Positions 4,679 to 24,010 of a stretch of 24,010 nucleotides of DNA are shown in pieces. Numbering within the stretch: the first letter of the stretch is position 1; each line of letters starts with the position of its first letter. Under the pieces are notes generated by a model. It saw only the letters and a program-made list of their open reading frames with translations. It did no database searches and was not told the origin of the DNA. This DNA is from a virus (taxonomy: Duplodnaviria; Heunggongvirae; Uroviricota; Caudoviricetes). Made by a program: the position numbers and the translations under genes. The stretch is taken from IMG/VR virus record IMGVR_UViG_2684622581_000006; one strand, 5' to 3'.

Positions 4679-4949
4679 GTTTCAGTTCCTCGATCCGGCG
4701 TTGTCGTTGTCTCAGCAGTGCGCTGGTCTGTCCTGCTTCGGCGTAGAGCCGCGCCTGCTCCCGGTTGTTGGTTTCAGCCAGAATGGACAGACCGATCAGC
4801 TGGCTGTTTTTCTTCGTCAGTTCTTGCGCTTTACTTTTCAGCGCCGCGCGCTGCGTTTCGATGGTGTGGCTGGCGCTGTTAAGCCGCCACGACTGCCAGC
4901 CCAGCGCAACGAATGCCAGCGCCACCACTACTGCCAGCGCACGCGTCAT
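4521..4949 (-). CDS. lysB: LysB-like i-spanin (Rz-type)
   Basis: 142 aa, N-terminal TM segment (ALAVVVALAFVALGW) followed by a charged coiled-coil-like region; immediately downstream of the endolysin. Confidence 0.7.
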   Translation of the reverse strand: MTRALAVVVALAFVALGWQSWRLNSASHTIETQRAALKSKAQELTKKNSQLIGLSILAETNNREQARLYAEAGQTSALLRQRQRRIEELKRENEDLRRWADTPLPADIIRLRERPALTGGAAYRQWLSASDAVSAGAGSAAH

Positions 4950-5461
4950 AGTCCAGCTCCTTTAAGGCACCAGGCCATCTCCCGCGCACGGCGGTTATCC
5001 AGCCCCTGATTAAACACACCTTTTACATACACCCAGCGCGGCAACTGTCGGCACGCATCCGCCCAGCGCCGCTGATTGAGTAATTTCACCAGTGTGGAAC
5101 TGCAGGCATTGCCCGTTCCCACGTTGAAGGCAAACGACACCGTAGCGTCATATACCTTCTGCGGCGGCTGTTGCTTCACACACCTTTCCAGCGCCCGCTC
5201 CACACGCAGCACGTTGGAAATCAGCCCTTCTGCTGCCTGTCGTTCCGTGATTGTTTTGCCGGGAATGACGCCTGACGTATTACCAATGCCGTCGGTCCAG
5301 ACACCAGCGCTGCACTGATACGGCTGCAGACGACAACCTTCGTAATCGGCAATCAGTTTCAGCCCCTCCACGGAGGTGTGAAGCTGCTGAAAACCCGGCA
5401 GCGTGGCAGCAATAGCCAGCACGGTCCCGACAAGGCAGCGTTTAACGATTGATGGATTCAT
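4946..5461 (-). CDS. Endolysin, T4-lysozyme-like (GH24) with probable N-terminal SAR domain
   Basis: 171 aa; E-x8-D-x5-T catalytic spacing in EGLKLIADYEGCRLQPYQCSAGVWTDGIGNT; Gly/Ala-rich hydrophobic N-terminus (CLVGTVLAIAATL) typical of signal-anchor-release endolysins. Confidence 0.8.
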   Translation of the reverse strand: MNPSIVKRCLVGTVLAIAATLPGFQQLHTSVEGLKLIADYEGCRLQPYQCSAGVWTDGIGNTSGVIPGKTITERQAAEGLISNVLRVERALERCVKQQPPQKVYDATVSFAFNVGTGNACSSTLVKLLNQRRWADACRQLPRWVYVKGVFNQGLDNRRAREMAWCLKGAGL

Positions 5462-5864: not shown

Positions 5865-6328
5865 CAGATAAGCTCCACTGTGCAGTGCGGCGCGTCCTGT
5901 ACCCGGCTGATGGCCCAGCGGGCGTCACGCCACAAATCACCGCTGGCTTCTGCCAGTTCCTCGCCCCGCTTCACACCGGATGCCGTGGTGTCATAGTCCT
6001 GGTATCGTTCGTTGAGCATGGCGCGTGCCCAACAGTAAACCGCGTTGAAATAGTGCTGAATGCGCTCACTTTTGCCGTCCAGCTGTTCCGCCGGAACCTC
6101 TGCCAGCGAGGCATACCCCAGCACCTGCTGGCGCCTGCGAAACTCATACAGCTCTGCGTTGACCTCCGAAATTGCCGACAGCGCAACCTGCTTTAAACGC
6201 GGCTGCGTCACCGTGCCGTCAGTGCGCATCACACTGCGAAACTCCGACAGGTCCACATCAGGCCAGAACGGCGTATTTCTGATGATTTCCGCCTGTTCCG
6301 GTGCCTGTTCTGGCGCAACAAACTTCAT
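5864..6328 (-). CDS. L: Head completion/stabilisation protein L
   Basis: ORF 5864-6391; internal start MKFVAPEQ (about 6328) is preceded by AGGAGAAA about 7 nt upstream. Position after M as in P2. Confidence 0.75.
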   Translation of the reverse strand: MKFVAPEQAPEQAEIIRNTPFWPDVDLSEFRSVMRTDGTVTQPRLKQVALSAISEVNAELYEFRRRQQVLGYASLAEVPAEQLDGKSERIQHYFNAVYCWARAMLNERYQDYDTTASGVKRGEELAEASGDLWRDARWAISRVQDAPHCTVELI

Positions 6329-6423
6329 GCTGCTTTCTCCTGAAATAGAGGGCGGTGGACGGGATTTTGATGTGGCAGTGCCTTTCGCCACCCCGTGCCG
6401 CCCGTGCGCGGGGGCACGTTCTG

Positions 6424-7074
6424 TCAGCGGCTGTCATTGCGCAGTCTGCGCTCCAGCTGCTGTTTGTCTTTTTTCACGCCACAGCGGGGATCGAGCTGTA
6501 ACGCATGGTTGAGATGATTAAGGGCGGACGCCGGATTGCTTTCACTCAGGACCGCGCCAATCGCTTTATGCAGACGTGCCCGTGACTGGTCCGGCATATC
6601 CAGACCGTCTGTCAGCTCCAGCGTCTGCAGCAACAGATCGGCATCAAAGCCGGTGGCGGCAAGCATTGCGCTCTGGGCTGCGTCTGCCATTTCCTCTGCC
6701 AGCACGGTCTGCACGTTGCGGTTACCCAGCGGCATCACCCAGCCATGACGCAGGGCATGACGCCCGATCTCCAGCGCCCCGGCATAATCTCCGGCATCAA
6801 TGCGCCACAGCATCACGTACATCAGCACGTCATCCTGTTGCGCGCCTCCGGCAGCCAGGACACCCTCCGCCCAGGCGGCGTACTTCGGCAGCAGCTCCAC
6901 CTTGATTTCCGCTTTTTTGACCGTGGACTGAACGCCCTTGAGACGGCGGCGGTCTTCCGCCAGTTGCAGCAGCATCAGGTCATAGCCCGACGCGTGGCGA
7001 ACACTGCCGCCCTCGCGGGCGGCCTGTTCAGCCTGAACGCGCAGGCGATGCTGCCGTGCGGGACTCAGGCTCAT
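6424..7074 (-). CDS. M: Terminase endonuclease (small) subunit M
   Basis: 216-aa ORF between N and L, as P2 gpM. Confidence 0.8.
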   Translation of the reverse strand: MSLSPARQHRLRVQAEQAAREGGSVRHASGYDLMLLQLAEDRRRLKGVQSTVKKAEIKVELLPKYAAWAEGVLAAGGAQQDDVLMYVMLWRIDAGDYAGALEIGRHALRHGWVMPLGNRNVQTVLAEEMADAAQSAMLAATGFDADLLLQTLELTDGLDMPDQSRARLHKAIGAVLSESNPASALNHLNHALQLDPRCGVKKDKQQLERRLRNDSR

Positions 7075-11964: not shown

Positions 11965-12777
11965 TTATTTTACTCTAAAGGCATCATCGGCTTTATGTGG
12001 TATAGGAGCATAACGCTCGGTACTTACTCGATGTAGCACCGCAAATATATTCAAAGGTGAACCATCCTTTAACCTAAGAGAAACATACATTGGCATCGTT
12101 GGTGTTAACCCCCGATTTAGGCCAACAGTGGCACCACTTACTTTCATACCATTTTCTAAAGATGCATTTTCAATAAACCCCTGAGTGAATGTGCTTTCTC
12201 CATTGACCATAACAACAACATCATCATGCTTAATTGTATTATCCATAATCATCATAAAATCAGCAATTGGTTCTAAAAAATCCATTGCTGATAATTTCAC
12301 TATCTTACCCCCATCACCATCCTTAATATCATAGGAGAGGTTTGAATACTTCTCAGGATTAGGAATATACGTATTTTGTTGATTAATGACATCTATAATT
12401 TGTCTTATTGCCACATCGATCCCATACGAATAAAGATCAATATATAGCGTTTGAGTAAGCAGAGCAGGCAAGGATATATTCTGGCAACGTATTGGTATAA
12501 ATTTACACTTCCCGGACGATGCCTTAATTAAAGCATTTTGCCATTCCATTTTTACCATGTTACTTGCCAAACTATTTTCTGTGACAAAAAAGAAAAAGAA
12601 CGATACATTCTCCATTCCTAAATTCATCTTGTCAATAATACCCTCTCCGGGTTGGATAGACCAAGAATCGTAGAATACGTTATCACGCCCATAAACATCT
12701 GCTAGTTTTTCCGCTATAACACTTACAAACCTTTTGTCACGGTGATTATGACTTAGAAAGATCATAGCATGCCCCAT
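11965..12777 (-). CDS. TIR-domain protein with about 135-aa C-terminal domain of unknown function (cargo; candidate anti-phage protein)
   Basis: N-terminus IFLSHNHRDKRF...FYDSWSIQPGEGI...FFFFFVTENSLASNMVKMEWQNA has the bacterial TIR hallmarks (F-x-S-H start, aromatic run, W-x-x-E helix with a candidate catalytic Glu near residue 78). Strongly AT-rich compared with flanking phage genes. Start could be M1 (12777) or M5 (12765). Confidence 0.75.
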   Translation of the reverse strand: MGHAMIFLSHNHRDKRFVSVIAEKLADVYGRDNVFYDSWSIQPGEGIIDKMNLGMENVSFFFFFVTENSLASNMVKMEWQNALIKASSGKCKFIPIRCQNISLPALLTQTLYIDLYSYGIDVAIRQIIDVINQQNTYIPNPEKYSNLSYDIKDGDGGKIVKLSAMDFLEPIADFMMIMDNTIKHDDVVVMVNGESTFTQGFIENASLENGMKVSGATVGLNRGLTPTMPMYVSLRLKDGSPLNIFAVLHRVSTERYAPIPHKADDAFRVK

Positions 12778-12846
12778 TAGAAATTAATGTGTAAGATCTG
12801 CGTAGAGAGTCACCGACAGTGTACCAATAATAATCTTCTGCGCGCA

Positions 12847-12865
12847 ATCGTATCCCCGCCACGCC
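12847..12865. other. Candidate cos (cohesive end) site, P2/186-type
   Basis: Reverse complement reads GGCGTGGCGGGGATACGAT, matching about 15/19 of the recalled 19-nt cohesive end of phage 186 (GGCGTGGCGGGGAAAGCAT) and P2 (GGCGAGGCGGGGAAAGCAC). It sits in a GC-richer non-coding stretch (12780-13065) on the expected side of Q. From memory only; coordinates +/- 2 bp. Confidence 0.4.
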
Positions 12866-13065
12866 TGCCCACTTTATGTAGTGGTTTTCATGCACCTGCA
12901 TGACATAAGCAAAAGCACGCCAGTTCTGGCTGGCATCAGCGAAAACGATCGTCATACTATCATGCGATCTCATGCGCCATATGAAGTTTTCCTGACACAG
13001 CCTTGGGTTGGGATAACACCTAACTCAGGAAGATTTTTTGTGTGTTTGTAACCCACACCTAGAGT

Positions 13066-14235
13066 TTACCAATCCATGTTTGCGGCATTATCCATCTCAC
13101 GAGTTAAGTAATTAACAAATAAGTCCATATTCCTTTCTGATTTCATCGCCTCCGCATAGGTTCCATTAGTTACGTAAGATAGTATTAAAGGACATCCAGA
13201 TTCAATATAAATTTTTGCTGGGGACAGTTCTCCCTGCCACAAATTTTCAAGAAAATCGTTAATTAATTGCATTGCTTCAGGTGCCAAAAAATGCACACCA
13301 TTTCCAAACTTGAAACGTTCTTTATTTTCTCGATGAGGCAGCAATAGTGGCACAGCCCCTACACTTGAGTGAAATTCCAATGCTTGCCCATCCTTACCGA
13401 AGGCGCCATGGGCTACAAAATTACGCACCTGTTTTCTGAGTATAAGTAAACGATCATAGAACAATTTTAGACTGGAAGAGTTAATATCAATGGCTAATTT
13501 GAATTTCTCCCCCCATTCTTTTCCAACTTTATCAGCCACATCATTCCCATTTTTTATCTCACCCTTCAAGATTGCAATAAGAATGAAAACATGCTCGGTC
13601 CAATTGAAAAATGACTCAATTGCAGACGTTGCTAACCACATAGCCTCTCTTCGGAGTTCAATTATCTTATTTGATTGTTCAAAAGTGGATTGTAACAGGC
13701 TGAAAAAATTATCAGACTTAAACTCACTATCAACTTCCAGTTTAGACTCTTGGCCAGCAGCAACTTCATCAAGCTTCTGTTTATATAGCTCTAAAAAATA
13801 GCAAAACCTATCATAAAGAGAATTAGCATTGTTATTAACATTTAGATTTGAAGTCTTTGCTGCATTGTCTGCAAGCGAGTCAAAAAAATTCGTAGCAGCT
13901 TTAACCCCTGCGCAAATATGTCTCAAAACAATTTTAGCTTGCTCTATATCATCATCACTCTTGATAAATATATCTAAACCAAGTTTACGATGTTCTATAA
14001 TTACGACAGTCCCATCAATCCGGACTGGGATAGAAAAAGAAATCTTCTCATCAACCCCACGATTTTTAAATTTCAGTAAATCTACCAAAAGAAAATAAAC
14101 GAGATAATACGGAGGTAATGAGTCTCCCAAACCCGAGCGCTTACCCCAAAAATATTCATCAAGCTCGGCAGACTCCATTGTCCCTATGACTCTTCGGACG
14201 CGTTCTTCAACTTTAGCCAGATCCATTCCCCACAC
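13066..14235 (-). CDS. Hypothetical 389-aa protein with HEPN-type R-N-x-x-A-H-G motif (cargo; candidate nuclease effector)
   Basis: Long AT-rich ORF between A and cos at the position where P2 carries old/tin. Contains LRKQVRNFVAHGAF (R271..H276), a canonical Rx4H HEPN signature. No further family recognised by eye. Confidence 0.6.
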   Translation of the reverse strand: MWGMDLAKVEERVRRVIGTMESAELDEYFWGKRSGLGDSLPPYYLVYFLLVDLLKFKNRGVDEKISFSIPVRIDGTVVIIEHRKLGLDIFIKSDDDIEQAKIVLRHICAGVKAATNFFDSLADNAAKTSNLNVNNNANSLYDRFCYFLELYKQKLDEVAAGQESKLEVDSEFKSDNFFSLLQSTFEQSNKIIELRREAMWLATSAIESFFNWTEHVFILIAILKGEIKNGNDVADKVGKEWGEKFKLAIDINSSSLKLFYDRLLILRKQVRNFVAHGAFGKDGQALEFHSSVGAVPLLLPHRENKERFKFGNGVHFLAPEAMQLINDFLENLWQGELSPAKIYIESGCPLILSYVTNGTYAEAMKSERNMDLFVNYLTREMDNAANMDW

Positions 14236-14396
14236 CGCCTTTCAATATCACTTAAGGTATTACAGCCAATGACATCGATTAAATACAGCGTAGATAATAG
14301 GCAACTTGCTACTGTTTTCAAGGGCTTTCTGTTTCAATCCTTAGTTGACCTTGCTGACGCGAGAATCTAGTTCTCACGCCAGCAACGCCCCTGCTG

Positions 14397-14585
14397 CTAA
14401 CCGAGAAGATCCATTACACGGTTATATTCATGGGCACGAATTTTCGCCATCAACTCATCAGTCAGCTCTGAAACCCACTGCAGAGCCAGCCCCTTCTCTT
14501 CATCACTACACTCACTAGCCGCTACAAGCTTAAGAAAAAAATCAATGCGCTGGAGCTTCAAAGACTCCAAAAAATAGTCCTGCAT
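14397..14585 (-). CDS. Small acidic hypothetical protein (about 62 aa)
   Basis: ORF 14397-14687; internal start MQDYFLESL is preceded by an AGGAGG Shine-Dalgarno about 5 nt upstream. Lies between the A stop and the 389-aa gene. Confidence 0.45.
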   Translation of the reverse strand: MQDYFLESLKLQRIDFFLKLVAASECSDEEKGLALQWVSELTDELMAKIRAHEYNRVMDLLG

Positions 14586-14738
14586 TTTTCCTCCTATGAC
14601 ACCACAAGCAATACTGTATGCATAACCACTGTTTATATTTACAGTATATAATAATCTTACTGATGTAAAACGTTTTTTTACGTTCATCAGCCTGATATGC
14701 CTGGTATTATTAAGAGCACGAATTGTTAATCCGCGTAA

Positions 14739-17153
14739 TTAATACAGGTTCCGCCACTTATCATCTTCCCACAAACGCTGGTTCCGATAGAAGATACGCA
14801 AGCCTGCTCCTGACGGAATACTGCCGCCGCGAAGGAGTAAATCGACCTCTTTCTCGCTGCCATCAAATCCTCTGGACTTCAGCTCATAGACGAGCTGCAG
14901 TCGCTGATGGTCTGTAATTCGCTGTTTGTAGTCTTTACGCCGTTTCGGTTTAACCAGGCGTAACCTTGCTGCCAGTTCCCGGCGCTCTTTTTTGCTCATA
15001 CTGTGCAGGTAATCGTGCAACTCCTTGTCATCCATGCGGGTAATGTCCGTTCTGGTGTCCCCATCAGCTGATTTATCTTTCTCCTGTTGGTTCAAATTTT
15101 CAGCAAGGGGACAGTTATTGCCACGAGTCCAAGGGGCGCAAGTGCCCTGGTCGGCTGCCGCCTCCTGAACGTCAACGGCCTTACGAACCATTTTCCACTT
15201 CACTGCATGAGTGCAGATCTTGCCCTCTGCAATGGGTGACCAGATGCCATAAATACGAATACCGTGATCGCCATAGGCGGTTGGCTCTTCGTTGATTTCA
15301 TAAGCGGTTCTGATGAGGTGATATTTGCGGGGAACCAGTACGCCGCCCTGCTTCATGATGTAGGTGGCAAAACAACCAGCATCAGCAGCAGCCAGGATGG
15401 CATCAAGGCGCGGGTTATCCAGTACCGGCGCACCTGCTTTTTTGTCACCCTGTTGCCTTGCCGCCTGACCAGCCAGCAATCGCAGTTCACGGTAAGCCTG
15501 ACGCCCCGGAATGCCAAAGAAGCGGAATTGCTGAACACGATGCAGAGACGCCCAGGCATTAACGTATTCAGCGTTATCACGCAGGGATTTACCCGTTTCC
15601 TTACTGATCTCGCCAGCCAGACCACGCCCGTCAATATTCTTACTGATATATTTCGCAATGTAGCTTGTCGGCGTTCCTTTGCGCGGGTTTATCAGCTCAG
15701 ACTTAAAGCGTGGCCCCGTGTTATTGCCCAGCTCCTCGCGGTCTTCACGGATGGCAAACTTACGCAACAATGCAGTAATGGCGCGGCGCTCTTTTTTGCG
15801 CATGAAACACAACAGGTGCCAGTGAACTGTGCCGTCATGATGCGGCTCAGCCACCCGCACGCCATACCAGCGCAACCCGGCTTTGTGCATAGCCTTACGA
15901 AATGCAGCAAACATGCCGACCAGATAATCGCTGCTTTGTCTTACTGTCGCGTTGGTCCAGGTCGGGTTTGGCCTGCCGTTATTTAGCGTGGAATGGAAAC
16001 GTGACGGACAGGTGATGGTGTAGAAAACGGCGCAGTCACCACGCATTTCCGCGATAAGCTCCAGGCCTTTAACACAGGCCATCATCTCATTGCGGCGATG
16101 CGCCGGGTTGCTGCTGCTGGCGTTTACCACATCCTCCATGTTCAGCGTGTCGCCGTCTTCGTTCACCAGTTCATGAGAACGGAAAAACTCCAGCGACTTA
16201 CGGCGCTGCTCACGTTTATGCATCACGGCTTCATAGCTGACATAGGGAGATGCTTTTTTGCTGACCAGGCTGACAGCACGCAACTGCTCTTCCCGCCATT
16301 CGCAACGCATCTTCCATAATTTCCGATACCACCAGTCGGCGCACAGCATACGCGCCAGCGAACCCGGAATGAGTTCATAGGGCACAGGTTTGCGGCGGTT
16401 TCTTTTCCGGCGGAGTTGCTCAAACGCAGGCGGTATGACATCCAGTCGCAGGGTTTCTGCAGCCACCTTTTCCCATGTCTTGCGGATTTCTTCTGGCTTA
16501 ACATCATCGGAGGCGTACAAATCACCACAAGCGGCATCAAGACACATGCTCATATGCGCAGCGACAAGGGTAGACAGGCGTTTCACCTGATCCTGACTCA
16601 TTTCAGGCAGGATCAGCAGACCGTCCAGCCCTTCATGGCTTGCCATAAAACGAAAAGATGCAGATAGCTGGCTGTCGCGTACATGCTCCAGTCGTTCCAG
16701 ACATGGCTTAATCGTCTCACGCAAATAGCGGGAATAAGCCTTTGGCCTGCCCAGGCTGCTGAAATATTCAATACGTTGCATCAGCGGCTTGCTGATATGG
16801 GAAGGCTGGGCGTTGACGTCGGCCAGAATGACCATGTCCGGATTAAAACGCTGCTGCTCATGCGCCATCTTTGCCCGGCTAATGAGCTTATCCTGCTCCA
16901 TTTCGCGTTGGACAGGATCACGGGATTCATTAAAGAAATAACGCTCCCAGACCTGATCACTCAGTGCCTCGCGGCGCAGTTGTTCCTGCTCGTTATCAGT
17001 AGCGTACAGAGTGATCAGGTTTGAAAGCGCAGAAACCGGCGCAACTTCCGCCGGGTCCAGATAAGGGTTAATGGCCTTTTTCGGGCTGTTCCATGAGAAT
17101 GCTGCGGCGACCTCGTTAAAGCCGCTGCAGTTGTTCATATCAGCATGGCTCAT
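14739..17153 (-). CDS. A: Replication initiation protein A (rolling-circle nickase)
   Basis: 804 aa; HUH-like motif (TVHWHLLCF) and the YIAKYISK tyrosine motif typical of P2 gpA-family initiators; preceded by dam with overlapping stop/start. Confidence 0.9.
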
Positions 17154-19294: not shown

Positions 19295-19804
19295 TCACAG
19301 CAAACCGAATGAAGCACCGAGGCCAGTCACGGTATCAACTGCACTCGCCATCGCAGGATTAGCCTGTAAACGGGCCTGCAATGAAACAGCCGCCAGCGCC
19401 ATCAGTCGTGTTACAGAGTTAATGCTGCTGATAGCATCACGACGACCTGCACTGGTTTTTACATCGCCAGATACCGCACCTGCAGCAACACGCCCGATCT
19501 CTGCGGTTGCACTCATGACGTAATGTGGCAGTTTCTCTTTTGCCACCTCATTAATTGGTACGCATGGCAGGCAGTGAATCTGTGCCAGAAAGCCATCTAC
19601 CAGCGTTGAATCTTCAGTCAGATCGGTAAGCAGCCAGATTTCTGGTGCGGTTAATAAATGAGGTTGAGCTGGATTCAGCTTGTTCCGCAGAATCTGCACT
19701 TTCATGCCTGCACGTTCTGCCAGTTGCACCAAGTTGTGGCGCAATGCAAATGCACGACATGCTTCATCAAAATGTGGATGTTTGGAAACTTGATAATCAA
19801 ACAT
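19295..19804 (-). CDS. cII: CII-like lysogeny-establishment regulator (186 CII family)
   Basis: ORF 19295-19858; start at [12 protein letters not shown] gives 169 aa, the length of 186 CII; position right after apl; sequence recalled as phage regulatory CII (CP76) type. Confidence 0.65.
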
Positions 19805-19836: not shown

Positions 19837-20058
19837 CTAGTTGAATACAACATTGCAATCAGTAAGTGCATCAACGGTAAGAGCAGCAAGGTTGATCATT
19901 ACCTTTTCTCTTTTTTTGTCTTTACGAAGACGATGCCGAGGGATGCGACCATCTGCCAGCATATCGTTGATTGTGTCGATTGAAAGACCAGTAAGTTCGC
20001 TATAACGCTCGATTGTGACGTGTGGTGTATTCAGAGTTATTGAAATGTTAGGGGTCAT
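19837..20058 (-). CDS. apl: Apl/Cox-like excisionase-repressor (small HTH protein)
   Basis: ORF 19837-20139; start at [10 protein letters not shown] (about 20058) is preceded by AGGAG about 10 nt upstream; 73 aa, first gene of the lytic early operon, divergent from the repressor gene. Confidence 0.6.
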
Positions 20059-20146
20059 GATGCAACATCTCCTTTTAGCTTGTGGTGAGCTGGTTTTAAT
20101 CGTGATAACAACATCACAAAACGGAGAATAGGTTCGCATAAAGAAT
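20059..20146. promoter_or_regulatory. Lysis-lysogeny switch region (early lytic and repressor promoters, operators)
   Basis: 88-bp region between divergent apl and the CI-like gene; contains the inverted repeat GTGAT-aacaac-ATCAC (about 20102-20117), a candidate operator. Promoter elements not resolved. Confidence 0.35.
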
Positions 20147-21097
20147 ATGTCAACTCAAAAATTCACATTTCGCCATATGAATGACGATATGAAAGCCGCT
20201 GTCATACAGAATCGCGGTGGTCAGAAAGTAATTGAGCGGATCCTCATGGCTTATGGCTTCAAGTCACGCCAGGCATTCTGTAATCACCTAGGTATTTCCC
20301 AAAGCACGATGGCTAACAGATATGCCCGCGATACATTTCCAGCAGATTGGGTTGTTATCTGCTCGATGGAGACAGGCGCATCAATTGAATGGCTAGCATT
20401 TGGTTCAGGTGTTAAAGAAAGAATGTCATCTTCTTCACTAGAACAACATGCTGAAAAACAAACCGAAGATGGACTTTGCGACAAAGTTCACTCTTCCCCC
20501 ACTCTGTTCGATAATGAAATCCACATGAATTTCACTCATGGAGGAAAAGCAGTAATAGAACGAATTGTTGAAGCTTACGGTTACAAGACACGTCAAGCCT
20601 TAGCTGATCACCTTGGTATTTCAAAAAGCACGTTAGCCACACGATATATGCGTGATACTTTTCCTGCTGATTGGGTAATTCAGTGTGCTATCGAAACAGG
20701 AGTATCCATCACGTGGTTAGCCTTTGGGAAAGGAGATAAAATAGAAAAAAATAGCAGTTTAAACTGTATAAATATACCAAAGTTTACTCTAAATAATGCA
20801 AAATTAATTGAGAGCGGGAACTCGATATTTGATAAAAATCTGTTACCTGAAAATACGATATTTCCTTGTTTGATTGAAAATGTAAATAACTTTTACATTT
20901 GTGAAAAAAGATTCAATAATATTATTGATGGCGAGTGGATCGTTGGTATTGATGGAGATATCAGTATTCGAACAATCACTAAATTACCTAATGAAAAAAT
21001 TCAAGTAAAAAATAAAAACATAGTTTTTGAATGTTCAATAAACGAAATCGAATTTATTGCAAAGATCGTATTATCCATTAATAATGTTAGAGGTTAA
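20147..21097 (+). CDS. cI: CI-like immunity repressor with two tandem HTH (186 CI-type) domains and an AT-rich C-terminal domain
   Basis: 316 aa. Two homologous segments (VIERILMAYGFKSRQAFCNHLGISQSTMANRYARDTFPADWVVICSMETGASIEWLAFGSG and VIERIVEAYGYKTRQALADHLGISKSTLATRYMRDTFPADWVIQCAIETGVSITWLAFGKG) recalled as the 186 CI N-terminal HTH fold; divergent from apl-cII. Confidence 0.65.
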   Translation: MSTQKFTFRHMNDDMKAAVIQNRGGQKVIERILMAYGFKSRQAFCNHLGISQSTMANRYARDTFPADWVVICSMETGASIEWLAFGSGVKERMSSSSLEQHAEKQTEDGLCDKVHSSPTLFDNEIHMNFTHGGKAVIERIVEAYGYKTRQALADHLGISKSTLATRYMRDTFPADWVIQCAIETGVSITWLAFGKGDKIEKNSSLNCINIPKFTLNNAKLIESGNSIFDKNLLPENTIFPCLIENVNNFYICEKRFNNIIDGEWIVGIDGDISIRTITKLPNEKIQVKNKNIVFECSINEIEFIAKIVLSINNVRG

Positions 21098-21098
21098 A

Positions 21099-22253
21099 AT
21101 GACTGACAGCAATTATATCAATAATAATTCTCTTGAGGACACAATAGAGATAATCGAAGAAGAACAGAACGATTCTTACTCAAATGATGATTTATACAAT
21201 ATAAACTCATGGGGGGCCGATTTATCTTTTAGAGAACTTATTACAATGTATGATGAGGGCGAACTTCAGAAACCAGAACTTCAAAGAAATTATGTTTGGG
21301 ATAAAGTCGAAGCCAGTAGATTTATAGACTCATTATTGCTAGGTCTTCCTGTTCCGAGTATTTTTTTAGCAAATACGTCTGACGAAAACAAACTCATTAT
21401 AGATGGTTTTCAGAGAATCATGACTGTCTATGATTATGTGACAGGTATATGGTCAAAAGATAGTAGAGTCTTTAAACTTTCCGATAGTAGAAAAATTAAT
21501 GCAAAATGGCGTGGTAAGGCCTTTAATGAACTTACAGTTTCAGAAAAAAAGAAAATTCGCTCAACAACTATACACGCTATAATCTTTGAGCAAACCGTTC
21601 CGTCGAACGATGATACTAGCCTATATCAAATTTTTGAGCGTATAAATACTGGTGGACGTTCACTAATGGCTCAAGAAATACGTAATTGCGTATATCAAGG
21701 GAAATTAAATACTCTATTGATAGAACTAAACAATAATATCAAATGGCGTACTTTATTCGGTTCTAATAAACCAGATGCACGAATGAGAGATATGGAATTC
21801 ATTCTAAGAGGCTTGGCTCTTAACACGCAGAAAATAAAGAGTCATGAACCAGCAAATATTTCTCTAAAAAAACTCCTTAATGAATATATGGGTGATAAAG
21901 CAAATAACACCTCTGACATGATCGACACCATTAAAACCGATTTTGAAAACACCATTAATTTTATTCATGATAATATAGGACCAGATGCATTCTTTAATAT
22001 AATCCAATCAGATCCATCACGTATACGTCGTCGTTTTTATCCAACCATTTTTGATGCATTATATGTCGCAACATCCATTGCATTAAATTCAGGTGAAGAC
22101 ATAAACACTAACGATCTAGAGCATAAAAGAAATGAGTTACTACAAAATCAGACATTTCGGTCACATATCACATCTGGTACAATGCAGATAGAAAATATAC
22201 ATGGAAGAATTTCAATGGCACTGGAGTTTCTTTATGGCATTCAATATCGTTAA
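21099..22253 (+). CDS. DUF262 (ParB/Srx-like, GmrS-type N-terminal domain) protein (cargo; candidate defence component)
   Basis: ORF 21057-22253; start at MTDSNYINN (ATG about 21099) is preceded by GAGG and begins 1-2 nt after the cI stop. Contains LQRNYVWDK and IIDGFQRIMT, matching the DUF262 F/YQR.YVW and DGQQR signatures. Very AT-rich. Confidence 0.7.
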   Translation: MTDSNYINNNSLEDTIEIIEEEQNDSYSNDDLYNINSWGADLSFRELITMYDEGELQKPELQRNYVWDKVEASRFIDSLLLGLPVPSIFLANTSDENKLIIDGFQRIMTVYDYVTGIWSKDSRVFKLSDSRKINAKWRGKAFNELTVSEKKKIRSTTIHAIIFEQTVPSNDDTSLYQIFERINTGGRSLMAQEIRNCVYQGKLNTLLIELNNNIKWRTLFGSNKPDARMRDMEFILRGLALNTQKIKSHEPANISLKKLLNEYMGDKANNTSDMIDTIKTDFENTINFIHDNIGPDAFFNIIQSDPSRIRRRFYPTIFDALYVATSIALNSGEDINTNDLEHKRNELLQNQTFRSHITSGTMQIENIHGRISMALEFLYGIQYR

Positions 22254-22869
22254 TAATAATGCTAAAAATAGCATTATAGATTGTTTAAAGGAACTTGAGA
22301 GTATAGAGAAGATGATAGAATCTTCTGGCCCCACTACAACTATTGTTAAATATTTAACACGATATTCAATTATTAGAACCTGCGGAACCATTGAATATTC
22401 TTTCAAAACAATCATTAGCGATCATAAATATGATCAACATAGTGAACAAATACAAAGATTCATTGATGAAAAATTCAGAAATAGTTCAATGAACCCTAAT
22501 TACGATAATATTTGTAAGGCACTTGGTTCATTTGATAATAACTGGTGTAACAACTTTAAGGACAAAATCAAGAACGATCCGCACTCAAATAAATTACGTG
22601 ATTCGTTGAAATCTTTAAATAGAGCCAGAAATGATTTCGCTCATGGAAAAAGCCCCACAGTATCATTTCAATATATTTTCGACTATTTTATAGATAGTGT
22701 AGCCATTATTCAGAAGATGGAGTCATCAATACTTGATTTAGAAGCGACAAATACGAATATTGGATTAACTAAATCTAACGACCGAGATAATACATTTTCT
22801 GATTTAGTTAATAATTCACAAAGAAATATCGCTAATGACCCTGAAAATAATTTAAGAGCAGATTTATAG
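22234..22869 (+). CDS. Hypothetical protein with HEPN-type R-N-x-x-A-H-G motif (cargo; candidate nuclease partner of the DUF262 protein)
   Basis: ORF 22201-22869; start at MAFNIVNN (about 22234) is preceded by GGAG about 10 nt upstream and overlaps the DUF262 stop by about 20 nt. Contains LNRARNDFAHGKSP. AT-rich. Confidence 0.6.
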   Translation: MAFNIVNNNAKNSIIDCLKELESIEKMIESSGPTTTIVKYLTRYSIIRTCGTIEYSFKTIISDHKYDQHSEQIQRFIDEKFRNSSMNPNYDNICKALGSFDNNWCNNFKDKIKNDPHSNKLRDSLKSLNRARNDFAHGKSPTVSFQYIFDYFIDSVAIIQKMESSILDLEATNTNIGLTKSNDRDNTFSDLVNNSQRNIANDPENNLRADL

Positions 22870-22932
22870 CACACCCTTGTCTGTTTTAATGAAATCATAC
22901 ATTGACCACTGTATATAAGCACAGTTAAATTT

Positions 22933-22952
22933 AGCCCTCTGATATGAGGGCT
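22933..22952 (+). terminator. Hairpin immediately upstream of int (possible attenuator or RBS-sequestering structure)
   Basis: AGCCCTC-tgatat-GAGGGCT followed by TCTTT and then the int ATG. Confidence 0.35.
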
Positions 22953-22957
22953 TCTTT

Positions 22958-24010
22958 ATGGCAGTACGAAAACTCACCACAGGGAAATGGCTTTGCGAAT
23001 GTTACCCCGCCGGACGTAGTGGGCGTCGTGTGCGTAAACAATTCGCCACTAAAGGCGAAGCTCTGGCTTTTGAGCGTCACACGATGGAAGAAACCGAAGC
23101 AAAGCCCTGGCTGGGCGAACCAGTGGATCGTCGGACATTGAAAGACGTGGTTGAGCTATGGTTCAAACTACATGGTAAATCTCTGACAGCTGGGCAGCAT
23201 GTCTATGGCAAACTGCTGTTGATGGTTGACGCTCTGGGCAATCCCCTTGCAACCGATCTCACCTCTAAAATGTTTGCCCACTATAGAGATAAACGCCTGA
23301 CAGGAGAGATCTACTTCAGCGAGAAATGGAAGAAAGGAGCAAGCCCGGTCACCATTAACCTGGAGCAAAGCTATCTAAGTAGTGTTTTTAGCGAACTATC
23401 CCGCCTGGGCGAATGGTCGTATCCGAACCCACTGGAGAACATGCGAAAATTCACCATCGCAGAAAAAGAAATGGCATGGCTTACCCATGAGCAGATTGTT
23501 GAACTGCTGGCTGATTGCAAACGTCAGGACCCAATTCTGGCACTGGTAGTCAAGATATGCCTAAGCACAGGCGCACGTTGGCGAGAAGCAATAAATCTTA
23601 CCCGCTCGCAAGTGACCAAATACCGAATTACCTTTGTAAGAACGAAGGGGAAGAAAAACAGAAGCATCCCTATCAGTAAAGAGCTTTACGAAGAGATCAT
23701 GGCGCTTGATGGGTTCAATTTCTTCACAGACTGCTATTTTCAATTTTTATCCGTGATGGAAAAAACGTCTATCGTGCTCCCTCGCGGTCAACTGACACAC
23801 GTTCTGCGCCATACGTTTGCGGCGCACTTCATGATGTCGGGTGGAAACATCCTGGCCTTACAAAAAATTCTCGGACACCACGATATAAAAATGACTATGC
23901 GTTACGCACATCTGGCACCGGATCATCTGGAAACGGCGCTCCGTTTCAATCCTCTGGCAACATTGCCAAGTGGCGACAAAGTGGCGGCAGCGGTTGGCAT
24001 TACCCCGTAA
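22958..24010 (+). CDS. int: Tyrosine integrase (P2/186 family site-specific recombinase)
   Basis: 350 aa; catalytic signature ARWREA ... LTHVLRHTFAAH ... HHDIKMTMRYAHL (R, H-x-x-R, Y). The stop coincides with the window end, so attP/attL lies just outside. Confidence 0.9.
   Translation: MAVRKLTTGKWLCECYPAGRSGRRVRKQFATKGEALAFERHTMEETEAKPWLGEPVDRRTLKDVVELWFKLHGKSLTAGQHVYGKLLLMVDALGNPLATDLTSKMFAHYRDKRLTGEIYFSEKWKKGASPVTINLEQSYLSSVFSELSRLGEWSYPNPLENMRKFTIAEKEMAWLTHEQIVELLADCKRQDPILALVVKICLSTGARWREAINLTRSQVTKYRITFVRTKGKKNRSIPISKELYEEIMALDGFNFFTDCYFQFLSVMEKTSIVLPRGQLTHVLRHTFAAHFMMSGGNILALQKILGHHDIKMTMRYAHLAPDHLETALRFNPLATLPSGDKVAAAVGITP

Follow-up and report, generated by a model that had tools for sequence, protein, structure and literature searches.

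Here, we analyze the immunity repressor gene cI in a 24,010-nt stretch of the Caudoviricetes virus record IMGVR_UViG_2684622581_000006 (IMG/VR), the whole of which is referred to below as the window. The gene encodes a repressor of the phage 186 CI type with two helix-turn-helix (HTH) DNA-binding domains in tandem, and is followed by two putative defence genes, the cargo, and by the integrase gene int. A preliminary description of this DNA had pointed out the doubled HTH and an AT-rich C-terminal part. The gene and the parts of its product, with their predicted local distance difference test scores (pLDDT), are as follows.

20147-21097, plus strand: cI, an open reading frame (ORF) for a 316-amino-acid (aa) tandem-HTH 186-type immunity repressor, with two Pfam matches to PF07022, one to PF16452, and a Protein Data Bank (PDB) match to 2FJR over residues 135-308
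20147-20227, plus strand: N-terminal extension, residues 1-27, whose codons 1-3 (ATGTCAAC) overlap the -35 box of a candidate promoter, pR, on the opposite strand
20228-20410, plus strand: HTH1, residues 28-88, the extra, tandem-specific DNA-binding domain (PF07022; five-helix model, pLDDT 77-90)
20411-20548, plus strand: disordered Ser/Glu-rich linker, residues 89-134 (pLDDT below 50 for 91-126)
20549-20737, plus strand: HTH2, residues 135-197, counterpart of the single HTH in ordinary 186-type CIs (PF07022)
20774-21070, plus strand: canonical CI C-terminal oligomerisation domain (CTD), residues 210-308, an AT-rich allele (PF16452; 2FKD fold)

Domain architecture of the repressor

The reading of the product as a CI-like repressor with two HTH domains is borne out by Pfam, in which PF07022 (Phage_CI_repr) matches each unit when scanned separately (E 1.8e-26 and 1.7e-31). 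Local alignment of residues 24-96 with 132-204 gives 48 identities in 73 positions (66%) and a score of 259, compared with 24 +/- 4 and a maximum of 38 in 500 shuffles. The homology of the two segments thus stands, while the preliminary boundaries (27-88 and 128-189) placed the second unit about seven residues too early relative to Pfam (28-88 and 135-197), and the proposed identity of 55-60% was slightly low. The linker was correctly called Ser-rich (six Ser in 46 residues, with an SSSS run), and the protein is indeed well beyond 186 CI in length, at 316 versus 192 aa. The two repeats share 63% identity as DNA, and 44% at third positions, suggesting an old duplication or fusion and no recent tandem repeat.

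The C-terminal part is that of an ordinary CI. PF16452 (Phage_CI_C) matches residues 210-308 (E 1e-24), full-length 186 CI (2FJR) aligns to residues 135-308, and the only solved relatives are 186 CI structures. An AlphaFold monomer model, built on 41 homologues, contains two five-helix bundles and one beta domain, all three confidently predicted, and the beta domain superposes on the 186 CI CTD (2fkd_A) with a template modelling (TM) score of 0.92 and a root-mean-square deviation of 1.5 A (Foldseek). The low pLDDT of linker residues 91-126, together with a predicted TM score (pTM) of 0.40, indicates that the model has no fixed arrangement of the heads. The N-terminal extension is modelled with low to moderate pLDDT and a single short helix (residues 13-20). 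NCBIfam holds no model matching CI or the cargo proteins.

The whole protein, with its HTH-linker-HTH-CTD order, departs from the one-HTH, one-CTD architecture of about 190 aa, which residues 127-316 have when taken alone. These residues (MNFTHGGKAVIERIV...) match complete 188-aa single-HTH CIs (MDFNNGGKKVIERLV...) end to end with 59-63% identity, so that the protein can be described as an N-terminal HTH1 module joined to a whole CI. In line with this, across 174 HTH units the HTH2 units average 72% identity to single-HTH units and are intermingled with them; HTH1 units are divergent (58%). M127 (ATG at 20525-20527, within the linker) aligns to the initiator Met of the 188-aa proteins. It was considered as an internal start for a normal 190-aa CI and rejected, since no Shine-Dalgarno sequence precedes it and the Met is replaced by Val or Ile in close relatives (L001, L003); we therefore treat it as a relic of the ancestral start.

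The preliminary description also reported a sharp shift to AT-rich DNA inside the ORF near 20700, which is confirmed: GC content in 200-nt windows falls from 0.40 to 0.28 around this position. By domain, GC is 0.46 in HTH1, 0.41 in HTH2, and 0.26 in the CTD (last 112 codons), remains at 0.30-0.34 across both downstream genes, and returns to 0.49 in int. The third-codon GC (GC3) falls earlier, near residue 75 (about 20372), from 0.52 to 0.12-0.36, with domain values of 0.42 for HTH1, 0.27 for HTH2, and 0.22 for the CTD.

From this shift it had been proposed that the C-terminal 120 aa are a new sensor or oligomerisation domain of foreign, non-CI origin that came with the cargo and displaced the CI C-terminus. 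The abrupt drop within the ORF and its continuation into the cargo would suit such an origin, as would the identity of just 31-41% between this CTD and those of the nearest backbone relatives. However, Pfam, the PDB sequence search, and the fold search all reject a foreign domain: the PF16452 match, the alignment of 186 CI as far as residue 308, and the close superposition on 2FKD refute it on domain identity, and most relatives also have homologous CTDs that are rich in AT (mean GC 0.36, compared with 0.48 for the HTH, in 33 loci). We regard the proposal as very improbable.

Selection on the two heads

Between the window and its relatives, the ratio of nonsynonymous to synonymous substitution rates (dN/dS) is 0.017-0.16 for HTH1 and 0.10-0.14 for HTH2, compared with 0.54-0.71 for the linker and, where measurable, 0.3-0.97 for the N-terminal extension; dS is near or beyond saturation for both HTHs in several pairs. 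Judged by these ratios, both HTHs are under purifying selection. Among E. coli and Klebsiella relatives, HTH1 is 90-100% identical at the aa level. Both recognition helices retain the near-invariant S-x-S-T-x-A-x-R-Y-x-R-D pattern of the family. The positions at which the two units differ lie in and just ahead of the recognition helix, and across 41 proteins HTH1 has C45 (41/41) where HTH2 has A153 (39/41), Q52 (32/41) for K160 (39/41), M55 (35/41) for L163 (35/41), and A60 (32/41) for Leu or Met at 168 (40/41). With differences this consistent, HTH1 and HTH2 probably read different half-sites, and the conservation of both supports two working heads, the specificities of which would differ.

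Distribution and diversity of the tandem class

Tandem CIs are found well beyond the window, the locus of which has an identical copy in 10 complete genomes. The N-terminal extension and HTH1 block is matched from the first base onward in 239 of 5426 complete E. coli genomes (about 4%) by blastn, which was used because megablast gave 17 genomes, a bad under-count of the class; two divergent E. coli examples were confirmed as tandem CIs of 311 and 318 aa. Full-length, single-piece matches also occur in Klebsiella phages, namely 4LV2017 (Elveevirus) and the ST437-OXA245phi4.2 group, where they are annotated ‘repressor protein CI’. Clustered at 90% identity, a large protein collection contains about 45 tandem-CI clusters with lengths of 291-330 aa, which come from Escherichia, Salmonella, Klebsiella, Citrobacter, Enterobacter, Kosakonia, and Edwardsiella. 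Ten more clusters at the 50% level are just 28-38% identical, and every one has two PF07022 domains and one PF16452. HTH1 itself falls into at least four sequence types, all in the apl-cI-cargo-int context, and in three of these types HTH1 begins at Met1, in the manner of a normal CI. Among the loci examined, no cargo-free tandem-HTH relative was encountered. The earlier suggestion that the repressor was rebuilt as a tandem-HTH protein in this prophage fails on this distribution, the tandem form being an old, widespread subclass. A single origin is not supported by the neighbour-joining tree, which leaves HTH1 non-monophyletic, in four types, although its 70-residue units are too short to tell independent fusions from HTH1 replacement.

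The same distribution bears on whether the tandem HTH could be an artefact or a decaying gene, produced by frameshift-fused cI fragments or misassembly, with one non-functional head. The alignment of M127 with the ancestral start codon and a truncated, CTD-less tandem protein in Dryocola (P0045, locus L042) could be taken as traces of such a process. Yet the locus is identical in 10 complete genomes, the architecture recurs in the 239 E. coli genomes as well as in Klebsiella phages that were induced or isolated, it is kept at 28-38% identity, and strong purifying selection acts on both heads, with dS saturated. An artefact or decay is accordingly hard to credit.

The Dryocola protein is itself of note. 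In L042 (Dryocola sp. BD586; cI at about 5926-6621), the tandem-HTH CI ends about 25 residues into the CTD, at 229-231 aa, with Pfam matches to PF07022 only. The tblastn match runs past the end of the protein, suggesting a frameshift, and the gene may be a natural CTD-less variant or part of a decaying prophage.

Another variant is a class of 198-aa single-HTH CIs (MSTSK class) in Klebsiella, Raoultella, Citrobacter, and Silvania, which has the switch DNA and the MST.K start in common with the tandem class. In these proteins the start runs directly into end-of-linker and HTH2 sequence (INPNKGGKAAIERLV), and the class looks as though the HTH1 block had been lost or gained in frame after codon 5.

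We found no published account of a tandem-HTH 186-type CI, which is absence of evidence only; Nilsson et al. 2011 (PMC3448106) describe longer linkers or longer C-termini only. Tandem CIs thus appear to form a widespread, apparently unstudied two-headed subclass of 186-type CI, labelled just “repressor CI”.

Defence cargo and the integrase flank

Downstream of cI lie the following features.

21099-22253, plus strand: cargo gene A, a GmrSD_N/DUF262 gene resembling PD-T4-2_A (PF03235, E 2.5e-26)
22234-22869, plus strand: cargo gene B, a HEPN (RiboL-PSP) gene resembling PD-T4-2_B (PF18735, E 2.4e-19)
22896-22957, plus strand: conserved 62-bp element at the right edge of the variable cassette, comprising a TTGACC box, an ACTG..CAGT palindrome, a hairpin (22933-22952), a T-run, and the int ATG
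22958-24010, plus strand: int, an ORF for a 350-aa integrase, at the stop codon of which the window ends

Pfam agrees with the preliminary assignment of the two cargo genes to DUF262/GmrSD_N and HEPN. In PADLOC, gene A matches PD-T4-2_A (1.8e-55) and NsnA (1.2e-65), and gene B matches PD-T4-2_B (1.6e-8). The two genes overlap by 20 nt, and locus L006 has the same 211-aa gene B and the same overlap.

The repressor gene is physically fused to this cargo, as had been proposed: a single nucleotide separates the cI stop codon (21095-21097) from the cargo ATG (21099), a Shine-Dalgarno sequence (AGAGG, 21089-21093) lies inside the end of cI, and no terminator is predicted from cI through the cargo before the hairpin at 22933-22952. 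This tight junction, the lack of a predicted terminator, and the analogy with the 186 cI-int operon make co-transcription from lysogenic promoters likely. cI and cargo are thus probably one transcription unit, in which case the defence genes would be expressed in the lysogen.

The hairpin itself receives a terminator-like call and folds at -19 kcal/mol (z -2.4); in seven loci it occurs in two sequence variants with compensatory changes that keep the pairing. Its 3' arm, GAGGG, could serve as the int Shine-Dalgarno sequence, and the hairpin may either stop read-through from cI and the cargo or mask int translation.

Related loci carry at least nine distinct cargos between cI and int, including PD-T4-2-like genes and Old. 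For example, a full-length Old nuclease gene occupies the cI-int site of E. coli D5 (L003, 4829-6598; PADLOC Old, 9e-235). In phage P2, old sits in the A-Q hotspot (PMC9519451), so one defence gene can be found in different hotspots of related phages.

A second variable region of the window (11965-14687, minus strand) occupies the classical hotspot of P2, flanked by replication gene A (14739-17153) and by the portal/terminase genes. It encodes a 269-aa TIR_2 protein (PF13676, E 1.2e-22; weak PADLOC matches to TIR-NLR/ThsB), followed by proteins of 74, 388, and 95 aa with no family match, and may be an uncharacterised TIR defence system.

Mosaic structure of cI and its cargo

Comparison with related prophages places the left edge of the exchanged segment inside cI. 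Three E. coli prophages at the same attachment site, beside rcdA, are 92-100% identical to the window at the DNA level in cII, apl, and the switch region, and 96-97% identical in int, as relatives with other cargo are; each has its own, different cargo, unrelated to that of the window. Relative to L001, the closest relative, identity is 97% up to about 20375, where the GC3 drop coincides with this first breakpoint, then 57-75% across the linker, with 87-90% where HTH2 is most constrained, before it falls at about 20645-20705 to 50% or less for the CTD. The right edge is seen in seven loci that differ in cargo, whose sequences can be aligned again from about 22896, which is 62 bp short of int. 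The composition break inside the ORF thus marks a real mosaic boundary, as the preliminary description held, and the position of the left edge indicates that the CTD, and at synonymous sites HTH2 too, was swapped along with the cargo.

The nearest relatives of the window CTD (51-62% aa identity) are found in single-HTH CIs (P0044, P0049, P0051). The loci of P0049 and P0051 carry the same GmrSD_N (384 aa) and HEPN (211 aa) cargo, with CTD GC of 0.30-0.31 and HTH GC of 0.47-0.48, and the backbones of the prophages with the nearest CTDs are just about 75-80% identical to the window. L006 and the window are colinear from cII to int at 60-80% DNA identity, apart from the HTH1 block of about 380 bp. 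We conclude from these comparisons that the PD-T4-2-like cargo and the window CTD allele arrived together from a different 186-like lineage, probably with HTH2 as well. The earlier idea that the original C-terminus was replaced therefore survives in a different form, with a homologous but divergent CTD allele from another 186-like phage in place of non-CI sequence; likewise, a shared history with the cargo is upheld as co-inheritance, CTD relatives standing beside the same cargo, and not as import of a foreign domain.

More generally, CTD identity is 0.71 in same-cargo pairs and 0.34 in other pairs (34 loci; permutation p < 0.0005), and an E. coli prophage and Klebsiella phage 4LV2017 have CTDs that are 98% identical and the same cargo. 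As a general rule, the CTD would travel with the cargo often, not always. The correlation between CTD GC and cargo GC was also tried as a clean test of co-inheritance and dropped, because it reaches r 0.76 only in a post hoc subset and HTH GC correlates as well (r 0.46).

The CTD is hypervariable across this group and its alleles are discrete, with a mean aa identity of 34% among different-cargo loci compared with 72% for the adjoining HTH. This variability might reflect selection against mixed oligomers of co-resident prophages, or escape from antirepressors.

Switch region and candidate operators

Upstream of cI, the following features were recorded.

19295-19804, minus strand: cII (CP76 family; PF06892, E 9.4e-42)
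19837-20058, minus strand: apl/cox-like gene, 73 aa from an internal ATG, divergent from cI; homologues in relatives are annotated as a 222-nt coding sequence
20080-20105, plus strand: conserved block TTGTGGTGAG-N10-TCGTGA, a possible pL or generic site
20100-20120: candidate operator dyad TCGTGAT-AACAAC-ATCACAA, at the predicted +1 of pR
20125-20153, minus strand: candidate lytic promoter pR, with -35 TTGACA (20153-20148) and -10 TATTCT (20130-20125), a consensus match of 10/12
20134-20140: degenerate TCACAWW copy (TCGCATA) in the pR spacer
20163-20169, plus strand: TCACAWW copy (TCACATT) in cI codons 6-8, just past the pR -35

The apl/cox-like protein has weak matches only, to HTH_17 and Cox. 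The candidate pR is the best promoter-like site on the minus strand, and its -35 box falls on cI codons 1-3, a geometry resembling that of 186, in which the pR -35 also adjoins the cI start. This overlap involves the upstream ATG of cI (TTGACA being the reverse of ATGTCAA), and the true start of tandem cI is uncertain. RefSeq is inconsistent, with M20 (MQNRGG...) in some entries and M1 (MST...) in others (L049 and L050: 3801/3858); the MST start is kept in every main-type tandem locus and in the MSTSK single-HTH class, and no convincing Shine-Dalgarno sequence was seen at any candidate cI start in the window, L049, or L050. In practical terms, annotation pipelines differ between M1 and M20 in the start they place for tandem cI genes.

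About 45 bp upstream of cI, the dyad pattern GTGA-N7..9-TCAC is present in 7/7 main-type tandem loci and 0/25 single-HTH loci; the dyad is intact in L050, and L049 has GTGG instead of GTGA. Its two halves differ in distribution, TCGTGR being common to single-HTH switch regions and TCACAWW restricted to the tandem type. TCACAWW copies at -33, -13, and +16 occur in main-type tandem loci only (9/9, 5/9, and 7/9, respectively), and those at -13 and +16 bracket the -10 and -35 boxes of pR. In the MSTSK class, which has no HTH1, copies are found in 0/7 loci. This distribution fits a reading in which HTH1 binds the TCACA sites. A further element, TTGTGGYGAG, lies 20 bp upstream of TCGTGR, a spacing that does not vary among tandem main-type, MSTSK single-HTH, and L006-type loci.

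Alternatively, HTH1 could be a regulatory or protein-interaction module, acting in antirepressor or Apl docking, as a decoy, or in autoinhibition, with HTH2 alone reading the operators. The extreme conservation of the HTH1 protein (dN/dS about 0.02) is compatible with a conserved protein partner, and the MSTSK class resembles the same gene minus HTH1 and is evidently viable. Against such a role, HTH1 retains the near-invariant S51, S53, T54, A56, R58, Y59, R61, and D62, and the class without HTH1 is also without the TCACAWW sites (0/7 versus 9/9). Moreover, no antirepressor was identified in the window: a non-exhaustive scan of early-region ORFs revealed no Tum-like antirepressor or other Pfam-recognisable regulator. 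We consider a purely protein-interacting HTH1 unlikely.

The 198-aa class (MSTSKYPNEIKINPNKGG...; L040, L017, L018, L021, L022, L034, and L039), which lacks the HTH1 block as well as the TCACAWW sites, contains a direct repeat of its own, AGTACCCAAAYGRGRWCAAAAT, which occurs twice; the class looks like a case of in-frame HTH1 deletion along with operator turnover. In the Kosakonia locus L047 (HTH1 type 2), positions 4880-5000 contain two dyads, one 186-like (TCAC-N5-GTGA; CTCACAAAATGTGAG) and the other CGTGA-N5-TCACG, as well as ATTTATTCTCACA in two direct copies spaced by 30 bp. L047 is richer in GTGA/TCAC half-sites than the window and could help decode which head reads what.

A probable two-headed, mosaic repressor

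Taken together, we find it likely that the window encodes a functional two-headed immunity repressor of the 186 CI type from a mosaic gene, the tail of which has been exchanged along with the defence cargo. The extra N-terminal module, in which a short extension and HTH1 are followed by about 45 aa of disordered linker, is fused in frame to a complete 186-type CI. The CTD would dimerise and oligomerise as in 186, with HTH2 in the position of the normal DNA-binding head and HTH1, tethered by the flexible linker, binding extra half-sites that bracket pR. HTH1 would travel with the conserved switch and backbone, and the segment that begins where HTH1 or HTH2 ends and runs over the CTD and cargo to 62 bp before int would be exchanged among 186-like phages.

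Several observations weigh against this explanation. The division of DNA-binding labour between HTH1 and HTH2 is predicted, and the promoters and operators are assigned by consensus or motif matches. Promoter-like sites in the region number 12, below the 14.9 expected from shuffles. Window-wide, TTGTGRTGA with one mismatch has 19 matches compared with 12 expected, which is not significant, and TYGTGRY, a pattern selected after viewing the switch region, is scarcer than expected (18 versus 27), yet 4 of the 18 lie within 107 bp of the switch. The clustering of TCACAWW is a circular argument and a lead, not a test, because the motif was derived from the same region, and the contrast of 9/9 with 0/7 does not amount to nine independent observations because main-type loci share a homologous switch. 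The dyad spacer also varies (N7, N8, N9), and the -13 copy is degenerate in the window. As to the linkage of CTD and cargo, same-cargo pairs are also more similar in HTH (0.88 versus 0.72) and Int (0.89 versus 0.75), so that relatedness confounds it; L001, L032, and L047 have the same cargo and unlike CTDs (0.35-0.46), and L014 and L016 have the same CTD (0.88) and unlike cargo. Across all loci, CTD GC correlates weakly with cargo GC (r 0.33, p 0.058), and an AT-rich CTD is not universal, as the tandem CIs of Edwardsiella have CTD GC of 0.47-0.53.

That weak correlation is also what would be seen if the AT-richness of the CTD were independent of the cargo, arising from AT drift or codon constraint, with the breakpoint a product of fast CTD evolution. 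CTD GC lies below HTH GC in 33/33 loci (means 0.36 and 0.48), and the CTD is generally hypervariable, with a mean identity of 34%, both of which agree with this alternative. However, the CTD fold needs no AT-richness, as shown by the CTD GC of 0.44 in 186, which has no cargo, and in the likewise cargo-less L038, and by the Edwardsiella values above. Furthermore, CTDs form discrete alleles, such as the 98% identical pair in the E. coli prophage and the same-cargo Klebsiella phage, and the nearest CTDs to that of the window stand beside the same cargo in backbones just about 75-80% identical. Independence from the cargo is, if anything, slightly less probable than a purely protein-interacting HTH1.

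Within the two-headed, mosaic explanation, a more speculative extension is that HTH1 and the switch constitute a fixed immunity-specificity module, while HTH2 and the CTD are a chassis swapped with the cargo. HTH2 keeps the recognition helix of single-HTH relatives, so repression might extend to a second immunity group, adding dual immunity. We view this extension as possible but doubtful. If true, it would be a division of labour in which phages change their defence payload and oligomerisation allele, immunity unchanged.

Comparison with known systems

The window CI shares with 186 CI the PF07022 and PF16452 families and an essentially identical CTD fold (TM 0.92), and the gene order matches that of the annotated 186 genome, with cI divergent from apl-cII (opposite strand; PF06892) and int downstream. 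In contrast to 186 CI (192 aa), it is extended at the N-terminus by a second HTH and about 45 aa of disordered linker, and the two proteins are 34% identical over HTH2 and CTD. The switch region is 88 bp in the window and 129 bp in 186, with unrelated operator sequences. The 186 cI overlaps int, has no cargo, and is uniform in GC (0.46 in the N-terminal domain, 0.44 in the CTD), whereas the window cI is followed by cargo. The dimers and the heptamer-of-dimers wheel of 186-type CI may also be formed by the window CI, which was modelled as a monomer. As 186 CI is a model for cooperative, DNA-wrapping repression, a natural form with doubled DNA-binding heads on flexible tethers raises a testable question, namely how operator geometry and cooperativity change.

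A repressor gene joined to defence genes recalls lambda cI-rexA-rexB, in which the immunity repressor is co-transcribed with phage-exclusion genes and defence is expressed in the lysogen, although the proteins are unrelated to those of the window and the lambda repressor gene lies outside an exchanged unit. Two HTH heads on one chain recall engineered single-chain 434 repressors, which place both heads on one operator without need of a symmetric dimer. P2 C binds direct repeats (PMC2995052), and direct-repeat half-sites are possible in the window as well, where the TCACAWW copies are direct repeats. In the window, by contrast with single-chain 434 repressors and P2 C, two different heads occur naturally on one chain, connected through a long disordered linker and seated on a CTD predicted to oligomerise.

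The cargo resembles PD-T4-2, which protects its native strain ECOR65 against T4 (Vassallo et al. 2022, PMC9519451), in having adjoining GmrSD_N/DUF262 and HEPN genes with PADLOC matches to both components. It differs in that the gene B match is weak (1.6e-8) and gene A scores higher against NsnA; the window allele is a putative defence system.

Variable defence cargo between conserved cI and int is as described for the cI-int hotspot of P2-related phages (Rousset et al.). A cI-int defence hotspot has also been described for K139-like Vibrio phages (PMC9122126) and an integrase-primase hotspot for P2-like phages (PMC13586616), the repressor being discussed in neither. The hotspot papers take cI as a fixed flank; in the window, the left edge of the exchanged segment is inside cI. 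An exchange boundary can therefore lie inside the immunity gene, so that cargo swapping can remodel the repressor itself, refining the picture of prophage defence hotspots to include a boundary that reaches into the repressor gene at a known site.

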